Shown here: positions 1,045 through 62,398 of the stretch, piece after piece | Numbering within the stretch: position 1 is the first letter of the stretch | Layout of the letters: each line of letters starts with the position of its first letter | Assembly (NCBI GenBank): GCA_963599475.1 | Contig: CAVBXH010000001.1 | Location: 4,602-68,601 of the forward strand | Direction of reading: 5' to 3' | Source: Acutalibacteraceae bacterium | Lineage (GTDB): Bacteria > Bacteroidota > Bacteroidia > Bacteroidales > Bacteroidaceae | DNA length: 64,000 bases | The notes under the pieces: model-generated | The model's database searches: none | What the model was told of the DNA's origin: nothing | The model's input: only the letters and a program-made list of their open reading frames with translations | Made by a program: the position numbers and the translations under genes

Positions 1045-1062
1045 AACAATGTCGTTTTACGG

Positions 1063-9924: not shown

Positions 9925-10015
9925 GGACAAGAAATATAAAATTTCGTGCAAAATTACGAAAATTTCGGCAAAAGATACCTATCTATTACTATATTTTTGC
10001 TAATTTTGCACAGGA

Positions 10016-11530
10016 ATGAAGATATTTACCAGTGCTCAGATCCATGAGCTTGATCGTTATACCATTGAGCACGAGCCTATTCAGAGCATCGCGCTGATGG
10101 AAAGGGCAGCCTCTACACTGACCCGTTCCATCGTCAGCATGTGGGGCAGTGACGTGCCCGTCGTCGTGTTTGCCGGTCCCGGCAACAACGGTGGCGACGC
10201 GCTGGCCGTAGCCCGTCTGCTCGCCGAGCAGGGCTACCAGGTCGCGGTCTACCTGTTCAACATCAGCGGACGGCTGTCGCCCGACTGCCTCATCAACAAG
10301 CGGAGGGTGCAGGAATGCAAGAACGTCAAGTCCTTCGTCGAGGTAACACAGGAGTTTGACCCACCGCAATTAGCGGAAGGGATGCTCGTCGTCGACGGAC
10401 TCTTCGGTTCTGGACTTAACAAACCGCTCTCCGGTGGCTTCGCCTCGCTGGTGAAATACATCAACGCCGCACAGGCCGAGGTGGTTTCCATCGACATGCC
10501 CTCGGGACTGATGAGCGAAGACAACACCTACAACGTCAGTGCCAACATCATCCAGGCCACCGTCACGCTGACGTTGCAACAGCCCAAGCTCTCGTTCCTC
10601 TTCCCCGAAAACCAGAAGTTCATCGGCAAGCTGCGCACCCTCGACATACGACTGAGTCGGGAGGGCATGCGACAGATAGATGCCAACTACACCATCATCG
10701 AGGAGGCGGATGTCCGGGCACTGCTGAAGCCGCGCGACCCCTTTGCCCACAAGGGGCAGATGGGTCACGCACTGCTCGTGGCTGGCAGCTATGGAATGGC
10801 CGGAGCGGCGATACTGGCCGCCAAAGCCTGTCTGCGCGCCGGTGCAGGCAAGGTAACGGTGCATACGCCGCGCAAGAACTGCCAGATACTACAGGTGGCC
10901 GTGCCCGAAGCCGTGCTACAACTTGACCATGAGGAAACCATCGTCACGGAGGCTGTGGACACGGAGCGCTATCAAGCCTTGGGCATTGGACCCGGCCTCG
11001 GACAGAATGAGTCTACCGCCATTGCACTCATCGCACAACTGCGGCGCGCCACGTGTCCCGTCGTGGCCGATGCCGACGCCATCAACATTCTGGCTAGCCA
11101 CCGCGCCTGGAAGCAGCAGTTGCCCCAGGGCATCATCCTGACGCCCCACGCCAAGGAACTGGACCGGTTGGAAGGCCCTTCCGTCGACAGCTTCGAGCGA
11201 CTGACCAAGGCGCGCCTGCTGGCTGAGCGGCTACAGGGCTGCGTCATCGTGAAAGGCCGCTACACGGCCATCTGCATGCCCGACGGGCACATCCGCTTTA
11301 ACGCTACCGGCAACGCCGGTATGGCCACGGCAGGCAGCGGCGACGTGCTGACGGGCATCATCACTGCCCTGCTCGCTCGCGGCTATCAGCCACAGAATGC
11401 TTCCATCGTCGGGGTCTATCTGCACGGACTGGCCGGCGACCTCGCCGCGCGCGACCTGGACGAAGAAAGTCTCACGGCCAGCGACCTCGTCCGCTATCTG
11501 CCCCGCGCCTTCAAGCGGCTCAAGGAATAA
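10016..11530 (+). CDS. nnr: Bifunctional NAD(P)H-hydrate epimerase/dehydratase
   Basis: YjeF_N (GPGNNGGD, DGLFGSG, DMPSG) plus carbohydrate-kinase domain (HKG, GPGLG, TPHAKE, AGSGDVL). Confidence 0.96.
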   Translation: MKIFTSAQIHELDRYTIEHEPIQSIALMERAASTLTRSIVSMWGSDVPVVVFAGPGNNGGDALAVARLLAEQGYQVAVYLFNISGRLSPDCLINKRRVQECKNVKSFVEVTQEFDPPQLAEGMLVVDGLFGSGLNKPLSGGFASLVKYINAAQAEVVSIDMPSGLMSEDNTYNVSANIIQATVTLTLQQPKLSFLFPENQKFIGKLRTLDIRLSREGMRQIDANYTIIEEADVRALLKPRDPFAHKGQMGHALLVAGSYGMAGAAILAAKACLRAGAGKVTVHTPRKNCQILQVAVPEAVLQLDHEETIVTEAVDTERYQALGIGPGLGQNESTAIALIAQLRRATCPVVADADAINILASHRAWKQQLPQGIILTPHAKELDRLEGPSVDSFERLTKARLLAERLQGCVIVKGRYTAICMPDGHIRFNATGNAGMATAGSGDVLTGIITALLARGYQPQNASIVGVYLHGLAGDLAARDLDEESLTASDLVRYLPRAFKRLKE

Positions 11531-12665: not shown

Positions 12666-15146
12666 TTATTCTCTTCCGCCCTGTTGCACCAGCGTGGCAA
12701 CGGCGGTAGTCCATGCTTCGTTGGCCATCAGGTCTTCGATGTTTAGGTGCATACGGTAGCGCCAGTAGTGGTGGGGGTTGGCCGGGATATTGATGCGCTC
12801 GCCGTTCGCGTCGGGCAGGCGGAGTCGCTCGTCGATGGCCAGCCAGTCCTGGATGCTGAGGATGCAGAGCATGGAGGGCGAGGCCAGATGGCGCGCGATG
12901 ATGTCCTGGGCCAGCCAGCCCGGCAGCGGATGCGGCGCGTCGCCCTCGCGGCCGAGCATCGTGCGGTAGTAGTTCTGCGTGCGCTCCGCGTCTTCGTCCC
13001 ACCACTGTCTGAGGGTCGGCGTGTCGTGGCTGGAAATGGTGCACACCGAACGATAGGGGTAGCTGTCGAGATGGCCAAAGCGAACGCCGAACGCCTTGGG
13101 CATACTCTGCAGTTCCAGACTCAACATCTTCAACTCGTTCATCACCCAGGGCACGCAGTCCGGCACCATGCCCAAGTCTTCCGCACATACCAGCATCCGC
13201 GTGGCCTGCACCAGTCGGGGCAGTTTCTTCATGGCCTCCTGGTACCAGAACTGGTTGTTGCGGCGATAGAAATAGTCCTCGTAGAGACGGTTGAAGGCCT
13301 CCTTCTCACTGTCGCTGAGCGAGGCGTAGACCGCACTGCGCTGGGCGGCGATGCGCGGATGGAACAGGTCGGGGCGGCGATGGTCGCGCACGAAGAGCAC
13401 GTCGGTAGTGCCGGATGCCGTGAACGACTCCTCCCGGAAGGGCAGTCCGTAGCGTTCAATCTCCTCGCGGCTCATGGCCAGCGCGGGCGAGAACTGTCCG
13501 AGCAGTCCGTGCCCACTGGCTGCGGGGATGGCCCAGATGCGGAAGAAGCCCAGCACGTGGTCGATGCGGTAGGCATCGAAGAACTGTGCCATGTTCTGGA
13601 AGCGGCGTACCCACCAGCGGCACCCATCCTTGAGCATCTCGTCCCAGTTGTACGTGGGGAAGCCCCAGTTCTGTCCGTCTTCGGAGAAGTCGTCGGGCGG
13701 TGCTCCGGTCTGTTCGTCGAGGTTGAAGTATCGCGGCTCCATCCACACGTCGCAGCCCAGCCGGTTGACACCGATGGGAATGTCGCCCTTGAGGATGACG
13801 CCCTTGCGTCTGGCGTGGTCGTGCGCCTGCTTCATCTGCATGGACAGGATGTACTGCACGAAATAGTAGAAAGCCACCTCCTTCCAGGCCTTGCAGCGCG
13901 GGTTCGACAGTGCCTTGCGGTCTGCCTCGTTCCACGTGGTGTGGCCTTCCCACTGGGAGAAGTCTGCCGTGCCGTGTTGCTCTCTCAGCCAGGAATACTG
14001 CGCGTAGGGCACCAGCCATTCCTGCGCTTCCCGGAAGAACTCCTTGAAGGCTACCGTGGCCATCATGCGTTTCCCCTCCTGCCGATAGATCTGTTGCAGA
14101 TAGTCCAGCTTGAAGCGGTTCACCTGCTCATAGTCCAGCTGTGGCAGAGCGTTCAGCCGTTGCCGCTCCGCCTCGGCCTGCTCTCGCGCAGACTCATCGG
14201 CCAAGGGCGGCAGGGCGCGGAGGTCTGCATATTGCGGATGGAGGGCAAAGACGCTGATGCAACTGTAGGGATAGGAGTCGGTCCAAGCGTGCGAGACCGT
14301 CGTGTCGTTGACGGGCAGCAGTTGCAGCACGCGCTGCCCCGTCTGGGCCACCAAGTCTATCATCCGCTGCAGGTCGCCGAAGTCGCCCACTCCCGCACTG
14401 CCCTTGCTCCGCAGCGAGAACACGGGCACGAGCGTGCCGGCCAGTTTCCGGTTGCAGATCTCGAAGAAGACCTGGTCAAGATGGTAGACCAGCACCTGCC
14501 CTTTCTGTATGCGCGACAGGGGGACGCACTGGTTGAAGCCGCACTCCCACATCCGCAGGTGGCCCGCTGCGTCCGCACAGATGAATTTCAGCTCCACGAA
14601 GGTGCCCTGCAGCGGTGCAGCGTCGAGGTCGATAGCCCACTCGCCATAGGCGTGGAGCGTCATGGGCCGCGCCTTGTCCGTGTGCCACGCGCCCAGCGAA
14701 GGGTCAGCCCCTACCACGGCCAGCCGATCCCCGTCGCGCAACTGTGGGGCACGCACGACGAGGCGCAACGTCGCTGCATAGTCCGATGCCTCCATCTGCT
14801 GCGGCTGCTGGTGGTTGATGCAGTCGGTGAAGGCACTGCTGTAGAGGTAGGAGTCCTCGGGCATGGCGTTCCACCGATCGTAGACGGTGTATTCCGTAGC
14901 CTCGCTGCAGGTCAGCTCCAGCGTGTGCATAACCGTTTGCCACTCTTCGCGTTCCCGTCCGTTGCCCGCCACCTTGTAGTAGTACGTGAGGACTGTCCCC
15001 GTCTGCAGCCCCGCCAGGTCGCAGAACCAGTCCCCGCCGCCGTCCGTCGCCATGCGGTGTGTCTTCACTTCATGTCCCTCACAAATGTTCAGCGTCACCT
15101 CCTCGCCGAACACGGTGTTTTGTCCGATATGGAAATGTATGGTCAT
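12666..15146 (-). CDS. malQ: 4-alpha-glucanotransferase (GH77, DPE2-like, N-terminal CBM20 modules)
   Basis: AGTLVPVFSLRS, DSYPYS, KGDIPIGV, GAPPD, YRIDHVLGFFRIW, AEDLG, SSHD, RINIP motifs. Confidence 0.96.
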   Translation of the reverse strand: MTIHFHIGQNTVFGEEVTLNICEGHEVKTHRMATDGGGDWFCDLAGLQTGTVLTYYYKVAGNGREREEWQTVMHTLELTCSEATEYTVYDRWNAMPEDSYLYSSAFTDCINHQQPQQMEASDYAATLRLVVRAPQLRDGDRLAVVGADPSLGAWHTDKARPMTLHAYGEWAIDLDAAPLQGTFVELKFICADAAGHLRMWECGFNQCVPLSRIQKGQVLVYHLDQVFFEICNRKLAGTLVPVFSLRSKGSAGVGDFGDLQRMIDLVAQTGQRVLQLLPVNDTTVSHAWTDSYPYSCISVFALHPQYADLRALPPLADESAREQAEAERQRLNALPQLDYEQVNRFKLDYLQQIYRQEGKRMMATVAFKEFFREAQEWLVPYAQYSWLREQHGTADFSQWEGHTTWNEADRKALSNPRCKAWKEVAFYYFVQYILSMQMKQAHDHARRKGVILKGDIPIGVNRLGCDVWMEPRYFNLDEQTGAPPDDFSEDGQNWGFPTYNWDEMLKDGCRWWVRRFQNMAQFFDAYRIDHVLGFFRIWAIPAASGHGLLGQFSPALAMSREEIERYGLPFREESFTASGTTDVLFVRDHRRPDLFHPRIAAQRSAVYASLSDSEKEAFNRLYEDYFYRRNNQFWYQEAMKKLPRLVQATRMLVCAEDLGMVPDCVPWVMNELKMLSLELQSMPKAFGVRFGHLDSYPYRSVCTISSHDTPTLRQWWDEDAERTQNYYRTMLGREGDAPHPLPGWLAQDIIARHLASPSMLCILSIQDWLAIDERLRLPDANGERINIPANPHHYWRYRMHLNIEDLMANEAWTTAVATLVQQGGRE

Positions 15147-15326: not shown

Positions 15327-18300
15327 ATGAACACTATACCGCAGGAATGGAACCAGTTTTATCTGAAGGACGTGTCGTTCGTCAACCTGATGACGCGCCG
15401 CATCTTCAACGTATTGATTGTGGCAAACCCCTATGACGCCTTCATGCTGGAGGACGATGGGCGCGTGGACGAGAAACTCTTCGACGAGTATATGGAGCTG
15501 GGCATGCGCTATCCGCCCACGTTCAGCCAGGTGTCGACCACCGAGGAGGCCGAGCAGGTGTTGCGCAGTGCCCATGTAGACCTCGTGATCTGCATGCCAG
15601 GCAACGCCGACAACGATGCCTTCGCCGTGGCCCGCGACGTGAAGCAGATGGCCCCGAACGTGCCCTGCGTGGTGCTGACGCCCTTCTCCCACGGCATCTC
15701 CAAGCGCATCGAAAACGAAGACATCTCCATCTTCGACTACGTGTTCTGCTGGCTGGGCAACACGAACCTCATCCTCTCCATCATCAAGCTGATAGAGGAC
15801 CGCATGAACATCGAACACGACATCAAGGAGGCGGGGGTGCAGATGATCCTGCTCGTGGAGGACAATATCCGCTTCTACTCCTCCGTACTGCCCAACCTCT
15901 ACAACTACATCCTGGCGCAGAGCAAGCGGTTCTCTACCGAGGCCCTCAACCCCCATGCCGCCGCGCAGCGCAAGCGCGGAAGACCCAAGGTGGTGCTGGC
16001 CACCAACTATGAGGATGCCATGCGCATCTACGAGAAATACCACGACAACACGCTGGGGGTCATCAGCGACACGCGTTTCCCCATGCACGCCCACCACGGC
16101 CAGCTGGCGCCCGTGCAGGAGGGCGACGCCGAGGCCGGACTGAAGCTGCTGCGCGAGATACGCCGGAGGGACGAATACGTGCCGCTCATCCTGCAGAGCA
16201 GCGAGAGCGAGAACCGCGAGAAGGCGGAGGCTGAGGGCTTCGACTTCGTGGACAAGAACAGCAAGAAGATGAACGTGGATCTGCGGCAGATTATCGAGGA
16301 GCACATGGGTTTCGGCGACTTCATCTTCCGCGACCCGAAAACGCACGAGGAGGTGTGCCGCGTGCGATCACTGAAGGAGTTGCAGGACAACATCTTCAAG
16401 ATTCCCAACGACTCAATGCTCTACCACATCTCGCGCAACCACATGAGTCGCTGGCTCTGTGCCCGGGCCATCTTCCCCGTGTCGGCCTTCCTAAAGCACG
16501 TCACGTGGCACAAGCTGCAGAACGTGGATGCCCACCGGCAAATTATCTTCGACGCCATCGTGCAGTACCGCCACATGAAGAACATCGGTGTCGTGGCCGT
16601 GTTCGACCGCCTGAAGTTCGACACCTACAGCCATTTCGCACGCATCGGCGAGGGGTCTCTGGGCGGCAAGGGGCGCGGACTGGCCTTCCTCGACAACATC
16701 ATCAAGCGACACCCGGAGCTGAACCAATACCCCAACGCGCGCGTCATGATTCCGAAGACCGTCGTGCTCTGCACCGACTACTTCGACCAGTTCATGGACA
16801 AGAACAGCCTCTGGGGCATTGCCCTCAGCGACGCCAGCGACGAGGAGATTCTCCGACACTTCCTCAAGGCGCAGTTGCCCGACGCGCTGATTGCCGACTT
16901 CTTCACCTTCTTCGACGCGGTCAAGTCGCCCATCGCCATCCGATCGTCATCGCTGCTGGAGGATGCCCACTACCAGCCCTTTGCCGGCATCTACAGCACC
17001 TACATGATTCCCTATCTCGACGACAAGTACGAGATGCTGCGCATGATGGCCTGCGCCATCAAGGGGGTCTATGCCTCGGTCTACTACAAGGACTCGAAAG
17101 CCTATATGACAGCCACCTCCAACGTGATAGACCAGGAGAAGATGGCGGTCATCCTGCAAGAGGTGGTGGGCAAGACCTACGGCGACCGCTACTATCCCAC
17201 CTTCAGCGGCGTGTTGCGATCGCTCAACTACTACCCCATCGGCGACGAGACGGCCGAGGAGGGCATCGCCTCGCTGGCACTCGGACTGGGGAAATACATC
17301 GTGGACGGTGGACAGACGCTACGCGTGTCGCCCTACCACCCCCACCAGGTGTTGCAGACCTCGGAGATGGAGGCCGCCCTGCGCGAGACGCAGACGCGCT
17401 TCTATGCCCTCGACATGAGCCACGTGGGCGACGACTTTCAGGTGGACGACGGCTTCAACATCAAGAACCTGCGCGTCAAGGAGGCCGACAAGGACGGGTC
17501 GCTGAACGGCATTGCCTCCACCTTCGACCCCAACGACCAGATTATCCGCGACGGCATCTATGAGGGCGGCCGCAAGGTCATCTCGTTCTGCGGCGTGTTG
17601 CAGCACGGCGTGTTCCCCCTGCCGGAGCTGCTGCAGATGGCGGAGCGGTTTGGGGCCGACGAGATGCGACGCCCCGTGGAGATTGAGTTTGCCTGCAACC
17701 TGGAGAATGGTGATCAGGGAAAGATGAACGGCGACTTCTATCTGTTGCAGATACGCCCCATCGTCGACTCCAAGCAGGTGCTCGATGCCGACCTCGAAGC
17801 CATTGCCGACGGGCAGTGTCTGCTGCGCTCCTCCCACTCGCTGGGTCACGGCATCTCGGAGGATGTCACGGATGTGGTCTATGTCAAGACGGGCGACGAC
17901 TTCACAGCCGTCGACAATCCTCTCATCGCCGACGAGATCGAGCAAATCAACCGCCGCTTCCTCGACGAGGGGCGCAACTATGTGCTGACAGGACCGGGAC
18001 GATGGGGGTCGAGCGACTACTGGCTGGGCATTCCCGTCAAGTGGCCACACATCTCGGCAGCGCGCGTCATCGTGGAGGAGGGATTGAAAAACTATCGGGT
18101 AGACCCCTCACAGGGCACCCATTTCTTCCAGAACCTCACCTCGTTCGGCGTGGGCTACTTCACCATCAATGCCTACAATGGCGACGGGGTGTTCCAGAAG
18201 GATGTACTGGACCGTATGCCTGCTGTAGAAGAGACGGCTCATGTGCGCGTAGTACGCTTCGACCGGCCACTGAAAATCATGATGGACGGCAAGAAGCAAC

Positions 18301-19330: not shown

Positions 19331-19364
19331 CTTTCGTCTCCTCTTCTTCCGTTGTTTTCTCCGA

Positions 19365-19507
19365 CAAAGGTACGATTAAGTGAGAGAAATGCAAAAAGAA
19401 AAATCATTTTCTTTTTCATTTCCGAACGAAAGTACCTTCGGCGCGCAGCGCCAAAGGTACGATTAAGCGAGGGGAAAACAAAATTTATTTGAGCTTTCCC
19501 GAGCGAA
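19365..19507. repeat. Tandem palindromic intergenic repeat (87-bp period)
   Basis: CAAAGGTACGATTAAGYGAG at 19365 and 19452; internal hairpin 19386-19422; AGGTAC/GTACCT outer arms. Confidence 0.75.
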
Positions 19508-19521
19508 CAGTTATCCTGTAA

Positions 19522-22026
19522 TCACAGCAGAATCTCTACAGCCTTGCCGTCATACGTCACGGTCTTGCTGGGCTTCATGGGTGCATCACCTGCGCCACTG
19601 TTCGCCCCGACAAGGACGATACGGAACGTGCGACTCTCCAGCATGCCCTTGAAGCTGCCCTTGCGGGGAGCGATGCGGAGGGTACGGTTGGCCTCGTCCC
19701 ATGAGAAGACAATCTGGGAGAACTGTCCCTTCTCGTAGTTGTAGTTGTCGCCCTCGTCCTCATAGAGGGTGAAGGTGCCGTCGGCACCGGGATAGACGCG
19801 GATCTCCAACTCGTCCCAAGGCTTCTCCGTACTGTACTGCACCTCGGGACCGAAGGGCAGGATGGTGCCGGCCTTGACGAACACGGGCATGATGTCGATG
19901 GGGCAGAGGCGCTGGATGTCCTGTCCGCCCTCGTACAGCGCATTGCTCCAGAAGTCGTACCACTGGTTGCCCTGGGGCAGATAGACGTTCACGGGAGCAG
20001 CGGCCTGCTTCACGTCGGGATAGATGGTGTGGCCTTTCTTCTCGCGGTCCTTCCAGGTGTACATCGGGTCGGTGACGGGCTTCACCAGAATGTTGCGGCC
20101 AAAGAGATACTCGTCGTTTAGGCGCGAAGCCTTCTTGTCGGCCGCATAGTCCATCACCAAGGCGCGCATCATGCTGCCACTGTTCTGCACGCAGTCGCCG
20201 GCAGTGCTGTAGATGTAGGGCAGGAGACGGTAGCGCAGGCGGATGGCCTTGAGCATGGCATCGTAGGCCCAGTCGCCCTCTTTGCCGAACTCATACAACT
20301 CGCTGACCATGGGCGAGGAGCAGTGGTTGCGCATCAGGGGCATGAAAGTGCCCCACTGCACCCAACGGGTCTGCAGCTCCTGCACGGCAGGGTTCTTCGG
20401 ACGCTGCTCATACTCCCAGTAGAAGAAGCCGCCGAGATCCGTATTCCAGAACGGAATGCCACAGAGCGTATAGTTCAAGCCCGAGGGCACTTGGTTCTTC
20501 ATCTCGTCCCAGGAAGCCACGATGTCGCCGCTCCACGAGAACGTGCCGTAGTGCTGGATGCCGAAGCAGCCGCTGCGCGTCATCTGCAACGAGCGTTTCC
20601 GGTTGCCCTTCATCGCACGCTGGTGCTCATAGATGCTCTTGTTGTGGAGCAGGGAGAAGGCATTCTTCACGCTGAGCCACGATCCGTCGTGGGTCTGCCA
20701 GTCCTCGTCGCCCGCCTTCTCAAAATGGTCGGGTTCGGTAGAGTCGGTCCACCAGGCGTCCAACCCCATCCGATAGAGGTTGGCGAGGTATTTCCAGTAG
20801 AGGTCGCGCGCCTTGGGGTTGAAGACATCGTAGGGCTGCACACCGGCGTTGCGGGGCCACGTGTCAAACGGCAACAGGGCGTTCATCTTCTTCAGTTCCT
20901 TGTACTGTTCCGTCCAAGGACCGAAGTTGGCCCAAATGGTGATCATCAGGTGGGCATTGTTCTTGTGGACGTACTGCACCATTTCCTCGGGACTCTTCAG
21001 TCGCGGTTCGCCCTGCGCCTTCATGTTCCTCATGTCGCGGGGCAGATACTTATCGTAGGCCGGGTCACCCACCTTGTTGATGTAGTAGGGATTCTGAAAC
21101 TTCATCGCGTTCCAGTTGGAGTCGCAGCCCCAGTACTGCCAGTCCTGCACGATGGCATCGGTGGGAATCCTCAACGCACGGTACTTGTCGAGCACACTGG
21201 CCAGTTCGTCGCTGGTCTTGTAGCGTTCGCGGCACTGCCAGAATCCCATTGACCATAGGGGAAACATGGTGGCCTGCCCCGTCAGTTCGCGGATGCTGGC
21301 GATGACACCGTCCTGCGTGCCGTCCTTGTACAGGAAGTAATAGTCGGCACAGGTGCCCACCTCGCTGGTGAAGGAGGTCTGCTCCGCATCGTCGAAGCGC
21401 GTCTTTCCGGCATTGTCCCAATAGAGTCCGTAGCCCTTCTCACTGGTGAAATACGGCATGGCGATGTAGGTGTTGTGGTTCCAAAGCTCCACATTGCGGC
21501 GGCCGCGCTGGTTCATGTGCGTGTCGCGCAACTGGCCGAGACCGTAGATAGCCTCGCCGTCCTCCAGCTGGAAGCACTGCCGAACGCGGTATTTCCCCTT
21601 GTTGGCCTCGTCCGTGCGCGCTTCAAAAGAGGTCTCCGTGTCGGCCAGCAGCGGCTTCCCGTCGGCGGAGCAGAAGCGGATTTCGCCCGTTGTCGGATTC
21701 AGCGTGACTGCCATGGCCGTGGACTTCATGCACACGACACCGTCCTCTTCTCGAACGTCAAACGCCTTCAGCGGTTGAGGCTGCAGAACAACCGAATAGC
21801 TTTTCTTCTGTGCCGCCGCATCGTCCTCCCCGTTTGCCTTCACCACTCGGACGATGGAGGGGGAATAGAAGGTGACGGTGACTTGCTGACCCGCCGCTTG
21901 ACGGGTGACGGAGGCTGTAGCAGCCTTCCCCTTGACCGCGCCCTTCGGCTGTTTCGCCAAGGAGTCGCTGGGCAGCCCTGCAACTGCGATGCCCAACAGG
22001 GCAAGCAGGAATTGTTTTTTCATCAT
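19522..22026 (-). CDS. GH31 glycoside hydrolase (alpha-xylosidase/glucosidase-like)
   Basis: IVQDWQYW, WWTDSTEPD nucleophile, WSGDI acid/base, WNTDLGGF, RYRLLPYIYS, LYEDEGD motifs; signal peptide. Confidence 0.93.
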   Translation of the reverse strand: MMKKQFLLALLGIAVAGLPSDSLAKQPKGAVKGKAATASVTRQAAGQQVTVTFYSPSIVRVVKANGEDDAAAQKKSYSVVLQPQPLKAFDVREEDGVVCMKSTAMAVTLNPTTGEIRFCSADGKPLLADTETSFEARTDEANKGKYRVRQCFQLEDGEAIYGLGQLRDTHMNQRGRRNVELWNHNTYIAMPYFTSEKGYGLYWDNAGKTRFDDAEQTSFTSEVGTCADYYFLYKDGTQDGVIASIRELTGQATMFPLWSMGFWQCRERYKTSDELASVLDKYRALRIPTDAIVQDWQYWGCDSNWNAMKFQNPYYINKVGDPAYDKYLPRDMRNMKAQGEPRLKSPEEMVQYVHKNNAHLMITIWANFGPWTEQYKELKKMNALLPFDTWPRNAGVQPYDVFNPKARDLYWKYLANLYRMGLDAWWTDSTEPDHFEKAGDEDWQTHDGSWLSVKNAFSLLHNKSIYEHQRAMKGNRKRSLQMTRSGCFGIQHYGTFSWSGDIVASWDEMKNQVPSGLNYTLCGIPFWNTDLGGFFYWEYEQRPKNPAVQELQTRWVQWGTFMPLMRNHCSSPMVSELYEFGKEGDWAYDAMLKAIRLRYRLLPYIYSTAGDCVQNSGSMMRALVMDYAADKKASRLNDEYLFGRNILVKPVTDPMYTWKDREKKGHTIYPDVKQAAAPVNVYLPQGNQWYDFWSNALYEGGQDIQRLCPIDIMPVFVKAGTILPFGPEVQYSTEKPWDELEIRVYPGADGTFTLYEDEGDNYNYEKGQFSQIVFSWDEANRTLRIAPRKGSFKGMLESRTFRIVLVGANSGAGDAPMKPSKTVTYDGKAVEILL
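21936..22020. repeat. 85-bp direct repeat copy 1 (signal-peptide coding region of GH31)
   Basis: Identical to 26640-26724 except A21982 versus T26686. Confidence 0.95.
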
Positions 22027-22053
22027 AACGCTTTTATTTGAGATAATAAGTTA

Positions 22054-23688
22054 TCAATATCCTGGATTCTGCTTGAGGTTGGTGTTGGTCAGAATCTGAC
22101 TGTTGGGAATGGGGTAGAGATTCTTTTCCTTGCTGCTTGCGTCATGCGAGAACCAGGAACGCGTGGCAAACACGCCAAAGCGAACCATGTCCTGCCGGCG
22201 ACGGCCTTCCTGAGAAAACTCCCATCCCAGTTCGTCAAGCATTCTGCCGTATGCAATGACGGCATTGTCGTGGCTGGTCTTGATGTTGTCTCGGCGACCA
22301 TAGTCGTAGCAACTGTTGCCCTGCAATTCCTCACCAGTGACAACCGCCTTGGCAGGATTGTCCGAGAAGTTGCGTTCCCTCACCTTTGTAACCAGTTCGG
22401 CGGCCTCGTCTGCATGGCCGGTTCTCAACAAAGCCTCCGCCTTCATGAGGTAAACGTCTGCATAGCGCAACAATGGGAAGTCGTTGCTCAGACGGTTGGT
22501 AATGCCTTCCGCATATTCAAATTTTCCCCATCGGAGACCTTGGTTCTCGTCGGAATCGTCGATGCTGTTCACCTCATTCACATAGACCAACGGCTGTCCC
22601 ACCAGGTTGCCCATGGTGCAAAGCAGTTCGCCACCATTCTTGTCATACTGCGGACCCGAGATGAAATCGTCCTTCAAGCGCTGGTCGTCGGGGTCAAACG
22701 TGTCAATATACTGGGGTAAGACGCATACGCCTCCCCACGGCGTAGCCTTGAAGTTGTAAGTAGCCTGGTTCTCGGGCTGCAAACTGTACATGTGGAAATC
22801 GAAGGCGTTCCAGTCTGTAATGTAAGTTTCGTCGAACGGCAAGGCAAAAATAATCTCCTTGCTGTTCTCATTGTTGGTCACAAACACATTCTTGCGCACG
22901 GACTCCAAGCTGTACTTGTCGCTTTCCAACACCTTGTTGCAGGCTTCAATACACTTGTCGTAATCCTTGTGGGTGCCGTCGCTGAACACCTCCGAGTTGA
23001 GATACATCTTGGCCAGAAGCGTATATCCAGCCCATTTGTTGAAGCGTCCGTAATACTCGCTGTTCACCTCCTCCGTCAGGTTGGGAATGTTCTCCGTCAA
23101 TTCCTGAATGATAAATTCATAGACCGCCTGACGCTTGCTCTGCTCCGGAAGGTAACCGGCAGGAACATCGAATTTAGTGATAATGGGCACATTGCCGAAC
23201 AAATCGTCCAGCACATAGTAATACGAAGCCCGCAGCACCTTCAGCTCCGAGACAACGGCAGCTTCCTTTTCGCCCAGTTGTATCTGGCCGGACTCTATCT
23301 GGTAGAAGACGCGGTTGCAGGCATTGATGCCGTCGTAGGTGCGAACCCACGACTGCAAGGGAATGTCGTCTTCACTGGTCCATTTGTGCTGGTGCATCCG
23401 CTTATAGACACCGCCGTCCACCCATCCGTTCGGACGAGCCGGAATGACATCCTCATCGGTGGGAAGCATCTGGGCACGCGCCACTCCATTCCAAAGTAGC
23501 ATGGTCTTACGCCAGGAGACATAGGCGGAAGACAGCAGGGAAGCAACATCTTCGTCGGTCGGCTGGAAACCATCTGCCACGACGCTGGAATAATTAGTAT
23601 CTTTCAAATCGGTGCAGGAAGAGGCACTGAAAAGTACGGCCGCACCCAAAAGACAAATATATAATCTATTGAATTTCATGATTTTCAT
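22054..23688 (-). CDS. susD: SusD/RagB family lipoprotein
   Basis: Lipobox ASSC; LRASYYYVLDDLFGNVP, LRYADVYLMKAEA, ELGWEFSQEGRRRQDMVRF, NLKQNPGY. Confidence 0.95.
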   Translation of the reverse strand: MKIMKFNRLYICLLGAAVLFSASSCTDLKDTNYSSVVADGFQPTDEDVASLLSSAYVSWRKTMLLWNGVARAQMLPTDEDVIPARPNGWVDGGVYKRMHQHKWTSEDDIPLQSWVRTYDGINACNRVFYQIESGQIQLGEKEAAVVSELKVLRASYYYVLDDLFGNVPIITKFDVPAGYLPEQSKRQAVYEFIIQELTENIPNLTEEVNSEYYGRFNKWAGYTLLAKMYLNSEVFSDGTHKDYDKCIEACNKVLESDKYSLESVRKNVFVTNNENSKEIIFALPFDETYITDWNAFDFHMYSLQPENQATYNFKATPWGGVCVLPQYIDTFDPDDQRLKDDFISGPQYDKNGGELLCTMGNLVGQPLVYVNEVNSIDDSDENQGLRWGKFEYAEGITNRLSNDFPLLRYADVYLMKAEALLRTGHADEAAELVTKVRERNFSDNPAKAVVTGEELQGNSCYDYGRRDNIKTSHDNAVIAYGRMLDELGWEFSQEGRRRQDMVRFGVFATRSWFSHDASSKEKNLYPIPNSQILTNTNLKQNPGY

Positions 23689-23706
23689 TGCTATAGTATG
23701 TTATTG

Positions 23707-26700
23707 TTAGAAGGTAAGGTTCACACCGAAAGTAAAGGCGCGCGTATGAGGATAGCTGTCGCGGTTGTCGTAAGCAGGCGACAAGCCTGATGTCGACACC
23801 TCGGGGTCAATGCCCTTATAGCCCGTGATGGTGATGGCATTGTTGACCGAGGCATAAAGCCGGAGTGCCTTGACCCACTTGCTCATATTGTTGAACGTAT
23901 AGCCCAGCGTGATGTTGTCAATCTTCCAGTAGTCACCGTCCTCCACATAGTAGCTATTGAACTCCTCGGAACACAAACTGCTCAGCACGGCCTTGCCGAA
24001 CACCTTGTCATAGGCGGAACGCAGGCGGTTCCAGTCCTGACGGCTTCTGTTTTCATAGAACATTCTCGTACCGTTAATAATCTGGAAGCCAAAGGCTCCA
24101 CGCATATTGACGGCGAGGTCGAAGTTCTTGTAGCGGAACTGGTTGTTGAAACCGAGATACCAGGTTGGCACGCCGTTGCCCAAAATCTGCTTGTCCTCGA
24201 ACGAATGGGTAAAATCGTCATAATTCACGCGGTTACCGTCCTTGTCGAGGTAAATCCACTTGCCGTTGTCGTCCACATCCACGACCTTGAAGCCATAGAT
24301 GTCGCCCACCTTGTGGCCAATACGTACAATGTGCGACTCCGTCTTGACGGGTTCCTCAATCCAACCCGTCATGAAATAGTCGGAGGAGGTCTGGTACAGG
24401 TCGTTGGACAGGCTCTTCAACTTGTTGGAGTTGGTGGAGAACGTAACCGTCGTGTTCCACTGGAAATCCTTGGTCTGCACTGGAATGGCATTCACCATGA
24501 CTTCAAGACCATTGTTGCTCATCTCGCCGACATTGGCGCGTGTGGTCGTGTAGAGGTTCGGGGGAGAGGGTACGGAGTAGTCGTAGAGCAGTCCCTTGAT
24601 AAGGCGGTAGTACCAGTCAATAGAGACGTTCACACGATAGTTCAGGATGCTGAAATCAACACCGACGTCATACTCGTGTTTCTCTTCCCATTTCAGTTTG
24701 TCGTTGGAATTCTGGGTCGGCTGCAAGGCGCGAATCCATCGTCCGTTGTAGAGGTAATAGTCGCCATAGCCCAACAGCGACACGCCAAGGAACGACTGGC
24801 TAGGCTGTGAACCCGTGACGCCGTAGCCTGCCCTCAACTTGATGTCGTCAAAGATCTTCTGGTTTTTCATGAATGGTTCCTCAGTGATGCGCCATCCTAA
24901 GGAGACACTGGGGAAAGTGCCCCAAGGCTCTTCTGTGCCTACCAGTTGGCTGGCCGCCTCATGACGGATGCTGGCCATCAACAGGTAACGGTTCTTGTAG
25001 TTATAGTTCAAGCGCCCGAAGAAACCGATCAGGTTCGTGTTGAGCTGGTAGCTGTATTCCGTGCCCAATCCCTCCTTGAGTGCCTGTCCGACACCAATGT
25101 TGTGCCAACTGAACGCGTCGGTCGGGAAATCGTAGTTGCGCTCATACTGATTGCTGTAAACACCTTCCTGGTAGCTGTAGCCCACGAGTGCCTGAACCGT
25201 GTGGTCGCCGAACGTCTTGTGGAAACGTCCCGTCAGTTCCATCAGTTTCGTCACCGTGCTGCTGCCGCCCGTGGAAGCATAGCCGTTCATGCCGTCTCGG
25301 ACATTGGAGATATGGTTCTTCGTCTCATAATATCCGCCCTCTTGATTAATCTTGTCATACGAGAGCAGTGCATTGAAGGTCAATTCCTTAATCGGTTCAA
25401 AGGTAATATTGGAACTGAAACGTGTTTGGGAGATTTTCTGTTCACCGTCACACTCATAGATGCGCGACACGGGGTTGTCATAATTGAAGATTCCCGTGTT
25501 CTCGCGCCAAGTGCCATCGGCGTTCTTGATGGGTTCTGTCGGATTGTGAATCAAGGCCTGACGCCAGCTATAGGTGTTGTAGCTGCCACCGTCGCTGGTT
25601 GACGTATAGCCTGTCTGGTTGCCTAACAACTGGAAGTTGAACCGCAGTTTGTTGTCAAACATGGAATGGTTCACCTCGGCACGTCCTTGGAACTCCTCCT
25701 TGTCCGAGCGTTTGAAGATGCCCTGAAGATTGCGGTAGTTGACGTTGAAGATATAGTTGGTCTCGCTGTTTCCGCCCTTGAAAGAGACATTGTGCACATG
25801 GCTCAGTCCTGTTCTGGTGATAGCATCGATCCAGTCGGTGTTGTCGCCCAAGTCCCAGGAGGCATCTCTCAAACCGTCTTGAATCTGCTGGCGGTAATCA
25901 TTGGCATCGCAGAAATCGGGACGCTTGGCCATGGTGGAGAGACTGAGATAGCCACTATACTGCACCTCGTTGATATTGTTGCCCTTCGACTTCTTCGTCG
26001 TGATGAGTACCACACCATTTGTTCCACGCGAACCATAGATGGCTGCAGCCGAACCGTCCTTCAGCACATCAATGCTCTCAATGTCCTCGGGAGCCACCGT
26101 ACTGAAACTGCCCGGCACGCCGTCAATCAGAATCAGCGGATTGGTGGATGCGCCCAGAATGGTGGTATTGCCACGAAGGGAGATTTCCGTGCCACCCACA
26201 GGATTGCCGTTAGGATTGGTCACGGAAAGACCGGCTATCTTGCCTTGAATCAGTTGGCCGGCATCATTGATGGCTCCTGCCGTGAAATCCTCACGCTTCA
26301 CGCTGCCGACCGAACTGGTGACATCGCCCTTTCTTTGTGTGCCGTATCCGATGACAACCACTTCGTTGAGCACTTTCCGGTCTTCTTCCAACACGATGGA
26401 GAGACGTTGTTGCTTCCCGACGGAAATCTCCTGTGACAGGAATCCGATATAGGAGATTTGCAGGGTGCTTCCTGCTTCTACATTAATGGTAAACTTTCCG
26501 TCCAAGTCAGAGACGGTTCCGTCGTTCTGTCCCTTCACTCTAATGGTTGCGCCGATGACGGGATTTCCCGTATCGTCTTTGATTATACCACTGATTTTCT
26601 TCGGTGTCCCGATCCTTTTCTGTTGGGTGGTCTGGACGGCCGCGCCCTTCGGCTGTTTCGCCAAGGAGTCGCTGGGCAGCCCTGCTACTGCGATGCCCAA

Positions 26701-26730
26701 CAGGGCAAGCAGGAATTGTTTTTTTGCCAT
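23707..26730 (-). CDS. susC: SusC/RagA TonB-dependent transporter
   Basis: VVVIGYGT, LKDGSAAAIYGSRGTNGVVLITTK, YPHTRAFTFGVNLTF. Confidence 0.96.
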   Translation of the reverse strand: MAKKQFLLALLGIAVAGLPSDSLAKQPKGAAVQTTQQKRIGTPKKISGIIKDDTGNPVIGATIRVKGQNDGTVSDLDGKFTINVEAGSTLQISYIGFLSQEISVGKQQRLSIVLEEDRKVLNEVVVIGYGTQRKGDVTSSVGSVKREDFTAGAINDAGQLIQGKIAGLSVTNPNGNPVGGTEISLRGNTTILGASTNPLILIDGVPGSFSTVAPEDIESIDVLKDGSAAAIYGSRGTNGVVLITTKKSKGNNINEVQYSGYLSLSTMAKRPDFCDANDYRQQIQDGLRDASWDLGDNTDWIDAITRTGLSHVHNVSFKGGNSETNYIFNVNYRNLQGIFKRSDKEEFQGRAEVNHSMFDNKLRFNFQLLGNQTGYTSTSDGGSYNTYSWRQALIHNPTEPIKNADGTWRENTGIFNYDNPVSRIYECDGEQKISQTRFSSNITFEPIKELTFNALLSYDKINQEGGYYETKNHISNVRDGMNGYASTGGSSTVTKLMELTGRFHKTFGDHTVQALVGYSYQEGVYSNQYERNYDFPTDAFSWHNIGVGQALKEGLGTEYSYQLNTNLIGFFGRLNYNYKNRYLLMASIRHEAASQLVGTEEPWGTFPSVSLGWRITEEPFMKNQKIFDDIKLRAGYGVTGSQPSQSFLGVSLLGYGDYYLYNGRWIRALQPTQNSNDKLKWEEKHEYDVGVDFSILNYRVNVSIDWYYRLIKGLLYDYSVPSPPNLYTTTRANVGEMSNNGLEVMVNAIPVQTKDFQWNTTVTFSTNSNKLKSLSNDLYQTSSDYFMTGWIEEPVKTESHIVRIGHKVGDIYGFKVVDVDDNGKWIYLDKDGNRVNYDDFTHSFEDKQILGNGVPTWYLGFNNQFRYKNFDLAVNMRGAFGFQIINGTRMFYENRSRQDWNRLRSAYDKVFGKAVLSSLCSEEFNSYYVEDGDYWKIDNITLGYTFNNMSKWVKALRLYASVNNAITITGYKGIDPEVSTSGLSPAYDNRDSYPHTRAFTFGVNLTF
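26640..26724. repeat. 85-bp direct repeat copy 2 (signal-peptide coding region of susC)
   Basis: 84/85 identical to 21936-22020. Confidence 0.95.
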
Positions 26731-26789
26731 AGCTTGGTAGTTTAATAATTGTTTTTAGTCTTGCTGGAATTGCATTTGAATTCCGGCTG

Positions 26790-26797
26790 CAAAGGTA
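26790..26797 (-). promoter_or_regulatory. Bacteroidetes -7 promoter element (TACCTTTG) for susC-susD-GH31
   Basis: Matches TAnnTTTG on the minus strand about 60 bp upstream of the susC start. Confidence 0.6.
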
Positions 26798-26876
26798 AGC
26801 ACAAACGGGAAAAACGGGTTAAGACAAATGAAGATACAAGTGGCACATTTGTTGAAATGCGCCCGTTTTCCACGGG

Positions 26877-28400
26877 TTATCTGTACTCGGAAGGCAACAC
26901 GTCAAACTCTTTTTTGAAGCATTTGGTGAAATAGCTGGGCGAGCTGAAGCCGGTCTTTTCGGCAATTTCGTTGACCGTCAGTTCACCCGTTTTCAGGAGT
27001 ACGGCGGCATGGTGCAGACGGATTTGGCGGATGAAGGCCACGGGAGTAGTGCCCGTCAGGGCCGTGAGCTTCTTGTACAGTCCCGTGCGCTCCATGCAGA
27101 GTTCGGCGGCCAACTGCTCCACGCCATACTCCCCGTCCTGCAAATGCTGTTCCACCAGTGTGCGCGCCCTTGCAATGAGTTCGTGTTCGGGCTCGGCTTC
27201 TTCCGCAGCTTCCGTCTCCGTGGCAGTTCCTATGCCGCCCGTTCTCCGCCTGCGCCGATAATACATGAGGCCAGCGGTCGCCCCTGTCAGCAGTGCTACC
27301 AGCAACGCCGCGCTCCATCCCGACTGCCACCAGGGCTTTTCTATCGTGAAGAAGAGACCCAACATGGGCGACACACAAATCAGTCCGTCGTTGTAAGTGC
27401 CCAGCCAGATGGTGCCTTCGCGGTCCCGATAGACGGTGTTGATGCCCGTTGTGAGCGATCGTCCGTCGGGCAGGGCAAGTTCCTTGACCTCGCGCGGCGT
27501 GTTGCCCACCCGGAAGTCGAACATCAGGTAGCCGTGCTGACTGCTGATGAGTGCCTGGTTGTCCGACGACATATTCAGGGTGTGCAGGATGTAGTCACAA
27601 GAGAAAATCTTGGAGTACTTTCGGCTCTCCGGATCGAAATGGAGGAAGACGGAGACGTGGTTCTGTCGCTCCGCTCCGCGGCCCGTACGGATTTGATAGA
27701 ATTGCCCGCTCGCGGTCTGCACCGTGAGCGAAGTGCCTTGGTAGTGTCGGGCTTCCGCAGTCGGATAGGCCGATGCCGTATAGGCCAATTCCCCGGCCTT
27801 GAAGGCCGCCACCACACCCGCGCTGTGGAACGTGTACACCAGCTGGCCGTCGGTGTCCAGGTCTTGCAGCGCGCCCCACGAGCGTTGGAGCAGGAGGGAG
27901 ATGCCGTCGGAGGTGTTGATCACTGTGTCCCCCGTCACGACCCACAGGTTTCTTTGTCCGTCCACGAACAGGTCGCCGATGGCCGTTCCCCCGATGTCCT
28001 TGACGCAAGTGTCCAGCGGATGCTCCAGCAACTTTCCCTGCTCCAGGTCAATGCAGAACACCTGCCGGACATCCTTCACCCAGAGCCTGTTCCAGTTGTC
28101 GGCATAGAGATGCGTCTGTCCGCCATATTTCGCCAGCGGCTGTGCCTTCCCCGACGGGAGCGGCACGAACTGGAAACGCTTGCCGTCGTAGAGGTTGATG
28201 CCCCGTTGCGTCCGCACGGCCAACCGGTTGTCCGGCAGCTGCATCATCTGGAGGATGCCGTTGTCCGACAGACCGTCCTTGCTGTTGAGCACACGGAAAT
28301 ACTCGTTCTTCTCTATTTTTTGCGCTGCGGCAGTCCACACGCTGCCCATGAGCAAGAAAAGAACGACCCAGAAAATACTATGTCGTAAGCCGTGTTTCAT
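26877..28400 (-). CDS. Membrane-anchored AraC family regulator with periplasmic beta-propeller sensor (HTCS-like, no kinase or receiver)
   Basis: Signal peptide; propeller repeats (DGLSDNGI, DREGTIWLGTYNDGL); KPWW then TM then RRRRR; short linker; AraC HTH (LYKKL...GFSSPSYFTKCFKKEF). Confidence 0.85.
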   Translation of the reverse strand: MKHGLRHSIFWVVLFLLMGSVWTAAAQKIEKNEYFRVLNSKDGLSDNGILQMMQLPDNRLAVRTQRGINLYDGKRFQFVPLPSGKAQPLAKYGGQTHLYADNWNRLWVKDVRQVFCIDLEQGKLLEHPLDTCVKDIGGTAIGDLFVDGQRNLWVVTGDTVINTSDGISLLLQRSWGALQDLDTDGQLVYTFHSAGVVAAFKAGELAYTASAYPTAEARHYQGTSLTVQTASGQFYQIRTGRGAERQNHVSVFLHFDPESRKYSKIFSCDYILHTLNMSSDNQALISSQHGYLMFDFRVGNTPREVKELALPDGRSLTTGINTVYRDREGTIWLGTYNDGLICVSPMLGLFFTIEKPWWQSGWSAALLVALLTGATAGLMYYRRRRRTGGIGTATETEAAEEAEPEHELIARARTLVEQHLQDGEYGVEQLAAELCMERTGLYKKLTALTGTTPVAFIRQIRLHHAAVLLKTGELTVNEIAEKTGFSSPSYFTKCFKKEFDVLPSEYR

Positions 28401-28517
28401 TCGGTCTGTTGTCCGGCCATTCGCAATGGCACTGCAAAATTACAACATTTTCGGGAGAAAGGGGCACGGATTGGCATAAAGATGCCGAAAACGTTGCGCA
28501 GCCACCCGGGCAAGATA

Positions 28518-36082: not shown

Positions 36083-36870
36083 TGAAAGACGTTCTCGAAG
36101 AAATAGTGGCGTGGAAACGTATAGAGGTGGAGCGGTTCAAGGAACAGGTGGCTCCGCACACGCTGTACCGCGAGGTGGAGCAGATGCTCGACACTGCCGT
36201 GCCCTCCATGAAAGCGGCACTGATGGCATCAGACTGCGGCATCATTGCGGAATTCAAGCGTAAATCGCCGTCCAAAGGATGGATCAACGAGACGGCAAAG
36301 CCCGACCATATGCCGCTGGAATATCAAAAGAACGGGGCGGCAGCCTTGAGTATACTGACGGACGGGAAGTATTTCGGTGGGGCAGACCGTCACATCACGG
36401 CTGCAAGAGACAGCGGGGTAAGGATACCGATGCTCTACAAGAACTTCGTCGTCGACGAATATCAGCTGTTTCAGGCACGCCGTTGCGGTGCGTCGGCCGC
36501 CCTGCTCATCGCTGCAGCCCTGTCCATGCAGGAGTGCCGCGCACTGCTCAGCACGGCGCGGGAGCTGGGATTGGAGGTGCTACTTGAGATGCACGGCGAC
36601 CGTGACCTTGCGTATGCGGAACTCGAACCGGACATGTATGGTGTCAACAACCGCAACCTCGGCACTTTCGTCACCGATGTAGACAACTCCTTCCGTCTGG
36701 CAGGACTGTTGCCGGCAGACGGGTGCAAGGTGAGCGAAAGCGGTATCAGTGCACCAGAAACGGTGAGACGGTTGCGGCAGGCAGGCTTCCGCGGTTTTCT
36801 CATCGGCGAACATTTCATGAAGACTGCATCGCCCGGGGCATCGCTGAAAACATTCATAGAAGCGTTATGA
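36079..36870 (+). CDS. trpC: Indole-3-glycerol phosphate synthase
   Basis: IIAEFKRKSPSKG, SILTD, GVNNRNL, VSESGI motifs. Confidence 0.97.
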   Translation: MMKDVLEEIVAWKRIEVERFKEQVAPHTLYREVEQMLDTAVPSMKAALMASDCGIIAEFKRKSPSKGWINETAKPDHMPLEYQKNGAAALSILTDGKYFGGADRHITAARDSGVRIPMLYKNFVVDEYQLFQARRCGASAALLIAAALSMQECRALLSTARELGLEVLLEMHGDRDLAYAELEPDMYGVNNRNLGTFVTDVDNSFRLAGLLPADGCKVSESGISAPETVRRLRQAGFRGFLIGEHFMKTASPGASLKTFIEAL

Positions 36871-45430: not shown

Positions 45431-45537
45431 TTCGGTAATTTGGCCGAGTTTCATTCGGTAATTTGGCCGAGTTTCGTTCGGTAATTTGGCCGAGTTTCGT
45501 TCGGTAATTTGGCCGTATTTCGTTCGGCAATTTGGCC
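45431..45537. repeat. 23-bp tandem repeat, about 4.7 copies (TTCGGTAATTTGGCCGAGTTTCG)
   Basis: Units start at 45431, 45454, 45477, 45500 and 45523 with no spacers. Confidence 0.95.
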
Positions 45538-45546
45538 ATCCGGTGA

Positions 45547-62286: not shown

Positions 62287-62398
62287 CCATCGCATCCGTT
62301 CGGGAAACGGACTATGGAACAGAAAAAGACCTTTTCTTTTTGTATTTCTCTCACTTATTCGTACCTTTGTCAGCAGAAAACCTCAATACGAAAATGAC

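Follow-up and report, generated by a model that had tools for sequence, protein, structure and literature searches.

We propose that, in the 64,000-nucleotide stretch of DNA analyzed here (the window), a susC gene has lost its own signal peptide and STN domain and begins instead with a copy of the predicted signal-peptide DNA of a neighboring GH31 glycosidase gene. Homologous recombination likely keeps the two copies of this DNA alike and likely also deletes susC and susD in some strains. We give this reading as a whole a probability of roughly 0.7.

Two unrelated genes share an 85-bp start

The genes of the locus all lie on the minus strand and were assigned with Pfam. A membrane sensor-regulator with a Reg_prop propeller and an AraC HTH (positions 26877 to 28400; database-called start, 28349) is followed by a promoter/leader region (26731 to 26876), susC (23707 to 26730; 1007 aa), susD (22054 to 23688; 544 aa), a 27-bp susD-GH31 leader (22027 to 22053), and the GH31 gene (19522 to 22026; 834 aa). 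A tandem susC-susD pair with a glycosidase and a regulator is the composition of a Bacteroidota polysaccharide utilization locus (PUL). The best PDB matches of the GH31 protein are 7kmp, 2xvg, and 5jou, and the enzyme is likely an alpha-xylosidase.

The sequence at 26640 to 26724 (susC codons 3 to 30) and that at 21936 to 22020 (the corresponding part of the GH31 gene) are identical at 84 of 85 positions. Both copies are on the minus strand and in frame, span nucleotides 7 to 91 of their ORFs, and encode KKQFLLALLGIAVAGLPSDSLAKQPKGA; the single mismatch is GTT/GTA, which is Val in both. The offset between them is 4704 bp, a multiple of 3, and a BLAST comparison of copy with copy in the window's assembly gives E = 2e-37. 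Alignment and BLAST thus agree with the first-pass annotation of this DNA, which had reported the 84/85 identity, the synonymous difference, and the 4704-bp spacing. It had also called the two genes unrelated, and the bodies of susC and GH31 indeed have no similarity. BLAST against the 2.39-Mb, 88%-complete assembly found no third copy of the repeat, and the same assembly yielded no archive of silent, promoterless cassettes with shared signal DNA. We rejected misassembly of the repeat, which is very unlikely because another species, assembled independently, has the same layout (locus L122); conspecific contigs 38383 and 32628, which hold the regulator, SusD, and a GH31 protein starting MMKK, also count against it.

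Ownership of the predicted signal peptide

A homologous N terminus is present on GH31 orthologues (MLKNLSFIALLGIAAVGVPSELSAK; in the genome G517, MTKKQFLLALLGLAVVGLPSESTAKQ). Close SusC orthologues are about 1070 to 1090 aa long, have other N termini, and align with the window SusC from about residue 35 to 45 onward. Pfam finds an STN match on the SusC orthologue P0014 and none on the window SusC, which lacks the native signal peptide and STN of its orthologues; the join is at about codon 31 to 36. In relatives without the insert, synteny places the sensor-regulator directly upstream of GH31, and alignment shows that the region at 26731 to 26876 is orthologous to the GH31 promoter of these empty loci, so that susC now lies behind a promoter that relatives use for GH31. 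This region holds the sole TAnnTTTG element (26797 to 26790) among three intergenic regions scanned with that sequence as the assumed consensus; the 27-bp susD-GH31 leader, which is outside the repeat, has none. These comparisons show that the predicted signal peptide and putative promoter preceding susC belong to GH31, the peptide's original owner. In SusC, this peptide has taken the place of the native one and of the STN signaling domain. The earlier suggestion that SusC borrowed a GH31 export signal is thus borne out by the N termini of GH31 orthologues, including that of G517; the usual owners of the peptide are GH31 and not SusC orthologues.

An N-terminal search found no further chimeric SusC among the best 120 of 1181 matches, and conspecific chimeras may be contained in a 565-member cluster. 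Screens of Segatella copri-like relatives found no shared 5' DNA for other genes upstream of GH31. The G517 N terminus is 15 nt shorter, for which simple slippage suffices; this is uninformative on origin.

Concerted evolution of the two copies

The L122 locus, from a sister species, has the same gene order as the window and is 86.0% identical to it over 8858 bp; both are gut species of Prevotella type. Over nucleotides 7 to 84, the paralogous copies within each genome are 98.7% and 100% identical, whereas the orthologous copies are 85.9% and 84.6% identical between the species. In this two-species comparison, 13 sites inside the repeat sort by genome and none by gene, 6 of the 13 being synonymous, and the binomial P values are 4e-5 and 7e-6. 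With G517 as the reference, 5 changes are private to each species and present in both of its copies. The gene bodies differ by 12% between the species, fourfold sites by 30 to 35%, and the predicted signal peptide by 19%. Paralogues are therefore closer within than between genomes in these two species, silent sites included. By this measure the copies evolve in concert, and recombination likely keeps equalizing them.

The first-pass annotation had offered recent duplication or ongoing gene conversion. The sorting of sites by genome upholds ongoing homogenization, but the duplication is not recent: the layout is older than a species split of about 12 to 14% nucleotide divergence. The duplication appears to have a single origin, since the two species agree in junction register, in SusC length (1007 aa), and in the leader between susD and GH31. 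Concerted evolution of dispersed repeats is familiar from tufA/tufB and rRNA operons, in which paralogues are more alike within a species, also at silent sites. Here, in contrast, it involves 85 to 94 bp inside two non-homologous genes with no common function beyond export, and 85 bp common to two unrelated genes can thus evolve in concert across a species split. Conspecific GH31 proteins include the signal-peptide variants A9T (P0006) and S20G (P0007).

Alleles that appear to lack susC and susD

Simulated crossover between the copies removes a 4704-bp unit (22021 to 26724; one repeat copy, the susC body, susD, the leader, and GH31 codons 1 and 2) and leaves an in-frame, 834-aa GH31 that starts MAKK rather than MMKK, the start of the filled form. 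The MAKK start is found in 3 of 11 other conspecific GH31 proteins, and these three differ from the simulated product at 0, 1, and 2 positions of the first 40 aa. These alleles are predicted proteins from NCBI assemblies, combined with contig-size matching. The sizes of their contigs (43297, 33168, and 22318) recur for variants of the regulator and of the upstream SusD; they are absent among 5 near-identical SusD entries in which the MMKK contigs 38383 and 32628 are present, a comparison that took the longest contig per protein and may have missed SusD variants within a 1200-member cluster. In G517, a third close species, the order is regulator-GH31-esterase, with the same gene downstream of GH31 as in the window and no long susCD match in the 88%-complete genome. 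Together, the simulation, the MAKK proteins, and the G517 locus bear out the prediction that crossover would leave an intact GH31, and they supply the anticipated relatives with a regulator-GH31 locus free of susCD. We conclude that presence or absence of susC-susD is likely polymorphic among strains.

It is unlikely, in our view, that the locus is instead fixed and filled, with gene conversion alone equalizing the copies and the MAKK proteins being assembly artifacts that skip the loop between the repeats. That explanation fits the derivation of all MAKK proteins from NCBI assemblies, one contig each, and the sister species, in which no empty allele was seen and all 6 GH31 entries are on contigs of 9.2 to 10.6 kb, the filled size. 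It also fits one SusD variant found on contigs of ≤4837 bp, which is equally compatible with repeat-broken assembly, a mixed population, or a circle. Against it, three assemblies made separately share the MAKK start, which occurs on two or more regulator haplotypes, and the locus is empty in G517. Furthermore, read pairs are usually longer than a repeat of 85 bp.

Pattern scans of metagenome contigs and viral contigs gave 0 matches, and such scans may omit near-identical genomes. Should the empty alleles prove real, a glycan transporter would vary between strains of one gut species through a precise, in-frame, recombinase-free loss. That loss would be readable at the second codon of GH31 (GCA versus ATG), so PUL gain and loss would be directly measurable in metagenomes.

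Origin of the arrangement

Among 41 distinct GH31s (≥75% identity), the regulator is directly upstream in 21 and susD in only 2. Loci L202, L203, and L124 have the order GH31-ECF-FecR-susC-susD, and L228 has regulator-GH31-susC-susD with a susC that lacks STN; this points to ancestral adjacency of these genes in another order. In the SusC tree, the window protein is sister to, and not nested in, this group. Among 80 distinct SusC orthologues, whose kin are not independent, STN is absent in 23/23 behind a sensor-regulator and present in 37/39 behind FecR. The origin is likely tandem duplication plus deletions from an ancestor with GH31-ECF-FecR-susC-susD. That ancestor would have been ordered regulator-GH31-(ECF-FecR)-susC-susD; after tandem duplication, deletions would have fused GH31 at codon ~31 with the linker that follows SusC's STN and eliminated the surplus genes. 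Control of the transporter would have passed from an ECF/anti-sigma pair to the promoter of the sensor-regulator. From then on, the copies could exchange without a dedicated recombinase, by conversion (giving identity) or by crossover (losing 4704 bp). The single-copy empty allele could also recombine with filled alleles of other strains, which would homogenize both copies because the empty allele is allelic to both via kilobases of flank. No close ECF/FecR orthologue was found in the window's own genome, G000, and no duplication intermediate was seen. Trees from 3789 codons with outgroups conflict on the branching order of G000, G417, and G517 (bootstrap, 66 to 73), and ribosomal L2 and rpoB could not be located in every one of these genomes. 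G517 may therefore be ancestrally empty, in which case the shared GH31-esterase junction would argue against duplication from an adjacent susCD.

We consider it quite improbable that an empty regulator-GH31 locus took up susC-susD as a circle and that the pair, as a swappable cassette, continues to excise and reintegrate. Relatives often have the empty layout, and G517 has it with the same downstream gene, so there is both a duplicated target and an empty site, as for an integrative element, and cycles of excision and re-entry would homogenize the copies too. However, a circle would need GH31 signal DNA beforehand, and given an ancestor with susCD beside GH31 (L202, L203, L124, and L228), duplication plus deletion is at least as simple. 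The unit carries susC and susD alone, with no integrase of its own. Its susCD is the same orthologous pair in both filled species and has diverged like GH31 (12%), and the SusC tree is consistent with vertical descent. We rejected the low GC3 of susCD as a mark of recent horizontal gain: it is no sign of foreign origin, because relatives show the same gap (0.48 versus 0.59 in L202), and 22.5% of 766 long G000 ORFs are equally low. The search for a different susCD in the slot found none. The earlier idea of a swapping transporter module is therefore unsupported, given also that no integrase is on the contig and that no circle was observed.

Action of a site-specific recombinase encoded elsewhere is very improbable. 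A profile search of the genome found 7 tyrosine-recombinase (PF00589) matches, 0 of them on the window's contig, C1, and no resolvase (PF00239) match, in keeping with the first-pass remark that no integrase is nearby. A weak inverted repeat (8/10) lies within the 85 bp, but the species differences are spread over all 85 bp with no conserved core, and the partner genes are non-homologous. We give almost no weight to selection, purifying or convergent, as the force that keeps the signal peptides alike, or to a separate recent duplication in each species. Export is a need of both proteins, and within a species their signal peptides are identical, but the 6 synonymous sites that sort by genome contradict selection, the 19% peptide difference also counts against it, and the shared junction register, SusC length, and leader point to one origin.

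Relation to known systems and generality

The arrangement recalls the BT1032-BT1053 shufflon of B. thetaiotaomicron, in which an in-locus tyrosine recombinase acts at a 7-bp site to shuffle three homologous susC genes (bioRxiv 10.1101/521070). Common to both are recombination at the 5' end of susC in a PUL, a form of susC without the anti-sigma contact domain (STN), and, probably, alternative locus states. Unlike the shufflon, the window locus has no local recombinase and no set of homologous susC genes exchanging 5' ends; it has an 85-bp repeat, unrelated partners (susC and GH31), and presence or absence as the likely outcome. In the vmp genes of Borrelia hermsii (PMC3974855), an upstream homology sequence of about 60 nt that includes signal-peptide DNA is tied to gene conversion at the expression site. 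That system is dedicated to antigenic variation and also includes silent cassettes without promoters and a homology sequence downstream. Signal-peptide coding DNA is shared between genes in both systems, but the window has two intact genes in a single operon, and the signal DNA alone is likely exchanged. The change from GH31-susC-susD to susC-susD-GH31 resembles the SNAP model (PMC7055797), in which the two copies of a duplicated segment lose different genes, so that gene order changes; here, in contrast, the deletions would lie within genes, making a chimera and leaving a recombinogenic remnant. No description of such an arrangement was found in the literature searched, which included few subscription papers and no supplements, and we judge it to be new as an arrangement and a recombinase-free variant of known PUL remodeling. 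It offers a route for bringing a PUL transporter under another regulator: a single junction gives promoter and export signal and removes the anti-sigma signaling domain.

A broader reading, which we find doubtful, is that the locus is a maintained, recombinase-free contingency switch. A lineage would drop surface SusCD (a possible phage receptor) with GH31 still expressed and exported, and an excised circle or filled strains would be the source for regaining SusCD. Duplications that lend a signal peptide would in that case be a general means of rebuilding and rewiring the carbohydrate loci of these Prevotella, of which one genome would hold three cases. Sharing of signal DNA is not common in the DNA sampled. 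A shared-start screen of G517 gave 0 pairs among 93 signal-peptide-like ORFs in 376 kb, and among 977 in 3.05 Mb of loci, a redundant and PUL-biased set, it gave L122 only. The same screen of G000 found 2 pairs among 631 signal-peptide-like ORFs. Two further loans of a glycosidase start with signal DNA, C37 and C47, are present in the same genome; the C37 pair was missed by this screen and found by others.

Structure and age of the signal-peptide repeat

The 85-bp direct repeat described in the first-pass annotation is borne out: the copies at 21936-22020 (GH31) and 26640-26724 (susC) are identical at 84 of 85 positions, lie 4704 bp apart and are in frame, and their sole mismatch is a silent Val codon. 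BLAST found no third copy in the 2.39-Mb source assembly (G000). The minus-strand gene order, assigned with Pfam, is sensor-regulator, susC, susD and GH31, and, as had been noted for the vicinity, there is no integrase on the window's contig. The closest solved relatives of the window GH31 are α-xylosidases (7kmp, 2xvg, and 5jou), and its substrate is therefore likely to be xyloglucan-type oligosaccharides. The host is Prevotella-type, its SusC sharing 87 to 89% identity with proteins that carry the name of Segatella copri.

A GTDB genome scan with SusD found a single close locus, L122 (95% amino acid identity), in genome G417, which we treat as the sister species because it matches G000 at 83 to 91% over many contigs. 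L122 matches the window in gene order and in the length of SusC and is 86.0% identical to it over 8858 bp; its own two repeat copies are identical at 92 of 94 positions. Over nucleotides 7 to 84, identity of the copies is 98.7% and 100% within the genomes, compared with 85 to 86% between them, and the gene bodies differ by 12%. Thirteen repeat sites (six synonymous) sort by genome and none sorts by gene. With a third close species, G517, as the reference, five changes fall in the window lineage and five in that of G417, each in both copies. Selection on the peptide cannot produce this genome-sorted pattern. A recent duplication, which had been proposed, cannot yield it either, and the filled layout, with susC-susD between regulator and GH31, is common to the window and L122. 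Recombination between the copies can explain the sameness within genomes, on the basis of two species. We conclude that the signal-peptide duplication is real and old and is probably still being homogenised. Two further loci, L126 and L135, also carry Bacteroidota PULs.

Ownership of the signal peptide

As to which family natively has the repeat-type N terminus, the orthologues point to GH31, not SusC. This GH31 is present in 71 of the 401 genus genomes drawn; most of the closest align from residue 1, and the orthologues' N termini are homologous to the repeat. In five SusC orthologues at 77 to 90% identity (frames of 1080 to 1100 aa), which carry their own signal peptide, the match starts only at residue 35 to 43. 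P0014, the SusC orthologue scanned with Pfam, has an STN domain; Pfam finds none in the window SusC, whose body begins in the linker behind STN. Alignment pairs the DNA 5' of window susC with the promoter that precedes GH31 in insert-free loci. Based on the N-terminal homology, the upstream alignment, and the missing STN, SusC has taken over the promoter, start, and predicted signal of GH31 and has lost its anti-sigma contact domain; STN is described as having a role in anti-sigma signalling (PMC7782687). A signal-peptide duplication would in this way have rewired a transporter.

Among 80 distinct SusC orthologues, STN is missing in 23 of 23 behind a sensor-regulator and present in 37 of 39 behind FecR, as scored with small home-made HMMs on related sequences that are not independent. 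In G000, which is 88% complete, neither the cognate ECF nor the cognate FecR has a close counterpart (best matches, 18 to 32%). Orthologous SusCs of 1018 to 1019 aa (P0016, P0017, P0021, P0023, P0025, and L228:4776-7832) have lost STN by internal deletion; these are separate losses in which the native signal peptide was kept.

Origin of the chimeric susC

The window GH31 is nested within a regulator-linked clade. Among 41 distinct GH31s (identity of at least 75%), the upstream neighbor is a regulator in 21, susD in 2 (the window and L122), another gene in 13, and a contig edge in 5. The S. copri-like locus L202 reads regulator-GH31-ECF-FecR-susC-susD; L203 and L124 have the same order from GH31 onward with the regulator out of view, and L228 reads regulator-GH31-susC-susD, its susC being without STN. 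In the SusC tree, the window SusC is sister to the S. copri-like group of these four loci. We infer, with a probability of roughly 0.55, that the present order arose by tandem duplication and deletions. The duplication would have spanned GH31 through susD, a deletion would then have fused the SusC linker to GH31 at codon ~31, and the present gene order would have resulted once the trailing copy was lost. The alternative is that susCD was inserted from another site. The lower GC3 of susCD does not count as a sign of foreign origin. The proposed duplication-then-loss origin is to be compared with the SNAP duplication-loss model, as outlined in PMC7055797. Genome G289 carries a near-identical GH31 pair 43 kb apart (C1 3550178 and 3592943), one copy behind a regulator and the other within a larger hemicellulose PUL.

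Recombination at the window locus is of known kinds, in a new form. It works partly like the Bacteroides thetaiotaomicron susC shufflon but does not belong to that type, since the window locus has neither a recombinase nor homologous partners (10.1101/521070); as with the Borrelia upstream homology sequence, recombination uses signal-peptide DNA, but the window locus, unlike that system, has no cassette archive (PMC3974855). Literature searches of incomplete coverage turned up no account of a signal peptide being shared by PUL genes that are unrelated to each other.

Probable empty alleles

Eleven further sequences, at 98.6 to 99.4% identity, belong to the cluster of the window GH31; 8 start with MMKK, as the window protein does, and 3 with MAKK, the susC-side start. 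The prediction that a crossover between the copies leaves an intact GH31 held in simulation, the product being a MAKK-type protein. Contigs of the same size as the three MAKK contigs recur for regulator variants and for regulator-upstream SusD; these sizes are absent among five near-identical bracketed-SusD entries, where two MMKK sizes are present (matching used the longest contig per protein only, and variants may sit in larger clusters). MAKK alleles occur on at least two regulator haplotypes. The MAKK starts may instead come from an assembler skipping the loop between the repeats. Compared with conversion of codon 2, crossover is the simpler reading, because conversion of that codon alone must resolve within 4 shared bases. 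In the sister species, all six GH31 entries are on 9.2- to 10.6-kb contigs, the filled size.

An empty locus, anticipated in the first-pass annotation, does exist in a related genome: G517 (GH31, 89%) has regulator-GH31-esterase and no long susCD match. The pair may have been lost there or never have been there, and the species order permits both. The duplication likely makes the transporter deletable, a reading that stops short of a swappable module or a selected switch.

Further signal loans and repeats

Screening G000 for shared signal DNA, as had been proposed, yielded two more cases and none in the other loci screened. On contig C37, copies at 3992-4095 and 17040-17142 (L279 and L280; 104 bp, 94%, 13048 bp apart) bracket regulator-susC-susD-unknown-GH43-GH43 (13 kb), and through this repeat the propeller/AraC regulator begins with a leader and 16 initial codons taken from a GH2 gene. 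The G417 counterpart has the regulator with its own, unswapped N terminus, and GH2 is on another contig. On contig C47, copies at 9942-10026 and 12759-12843 (L373; 85 bp, 93%, 2817 bp apart) take in the upstream gene's end together with the leader and signal of two genes, a GH2 gene and a GH43-like gene, the latter with a signal peptide on loan from GH2. In G417 and G517, the GH43-like module is the C-terminal tail of a longer frame, without its own signal peptide; the GH2 is 938 aa in G000 versus at least 1397 aa in G517. Both cases fit an origin by duplication plus deletion.

C37 also encodes, at 357-3800, a phosphatase-GH92 fusion of 1147 aa, likely a truncated form (1988 to 1995 aa in cluster relatives). 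On contig C8, a 125-bp intergenic promoter-like repeat (36586-36710 and 39768-39892, L374; 97%) brackets a gene for a GH2 beta-galactosidase-like protein that is part of a rhamnose cluster; the match in G417 is limited to the downstream part. A dispersed intergenic repeat of ~85 to 120 bp with an internal hairpin occurs at window positions 19362-19483 and 62317-62371 and on many contigs; in G000, G417, and G517 it frequently sits where a contig ends. A 23-bp tandem repeat of ~5 units lies downstream of recG (45431-45545), and a related unit is found at the regulator start (28389-28415). Behind its membrane helix, the regulator has a hypervariable linker (alignment residues ~345 to 390), in which 15 conspecific variants show mosaic haplotypes and an indel of 3 residues.
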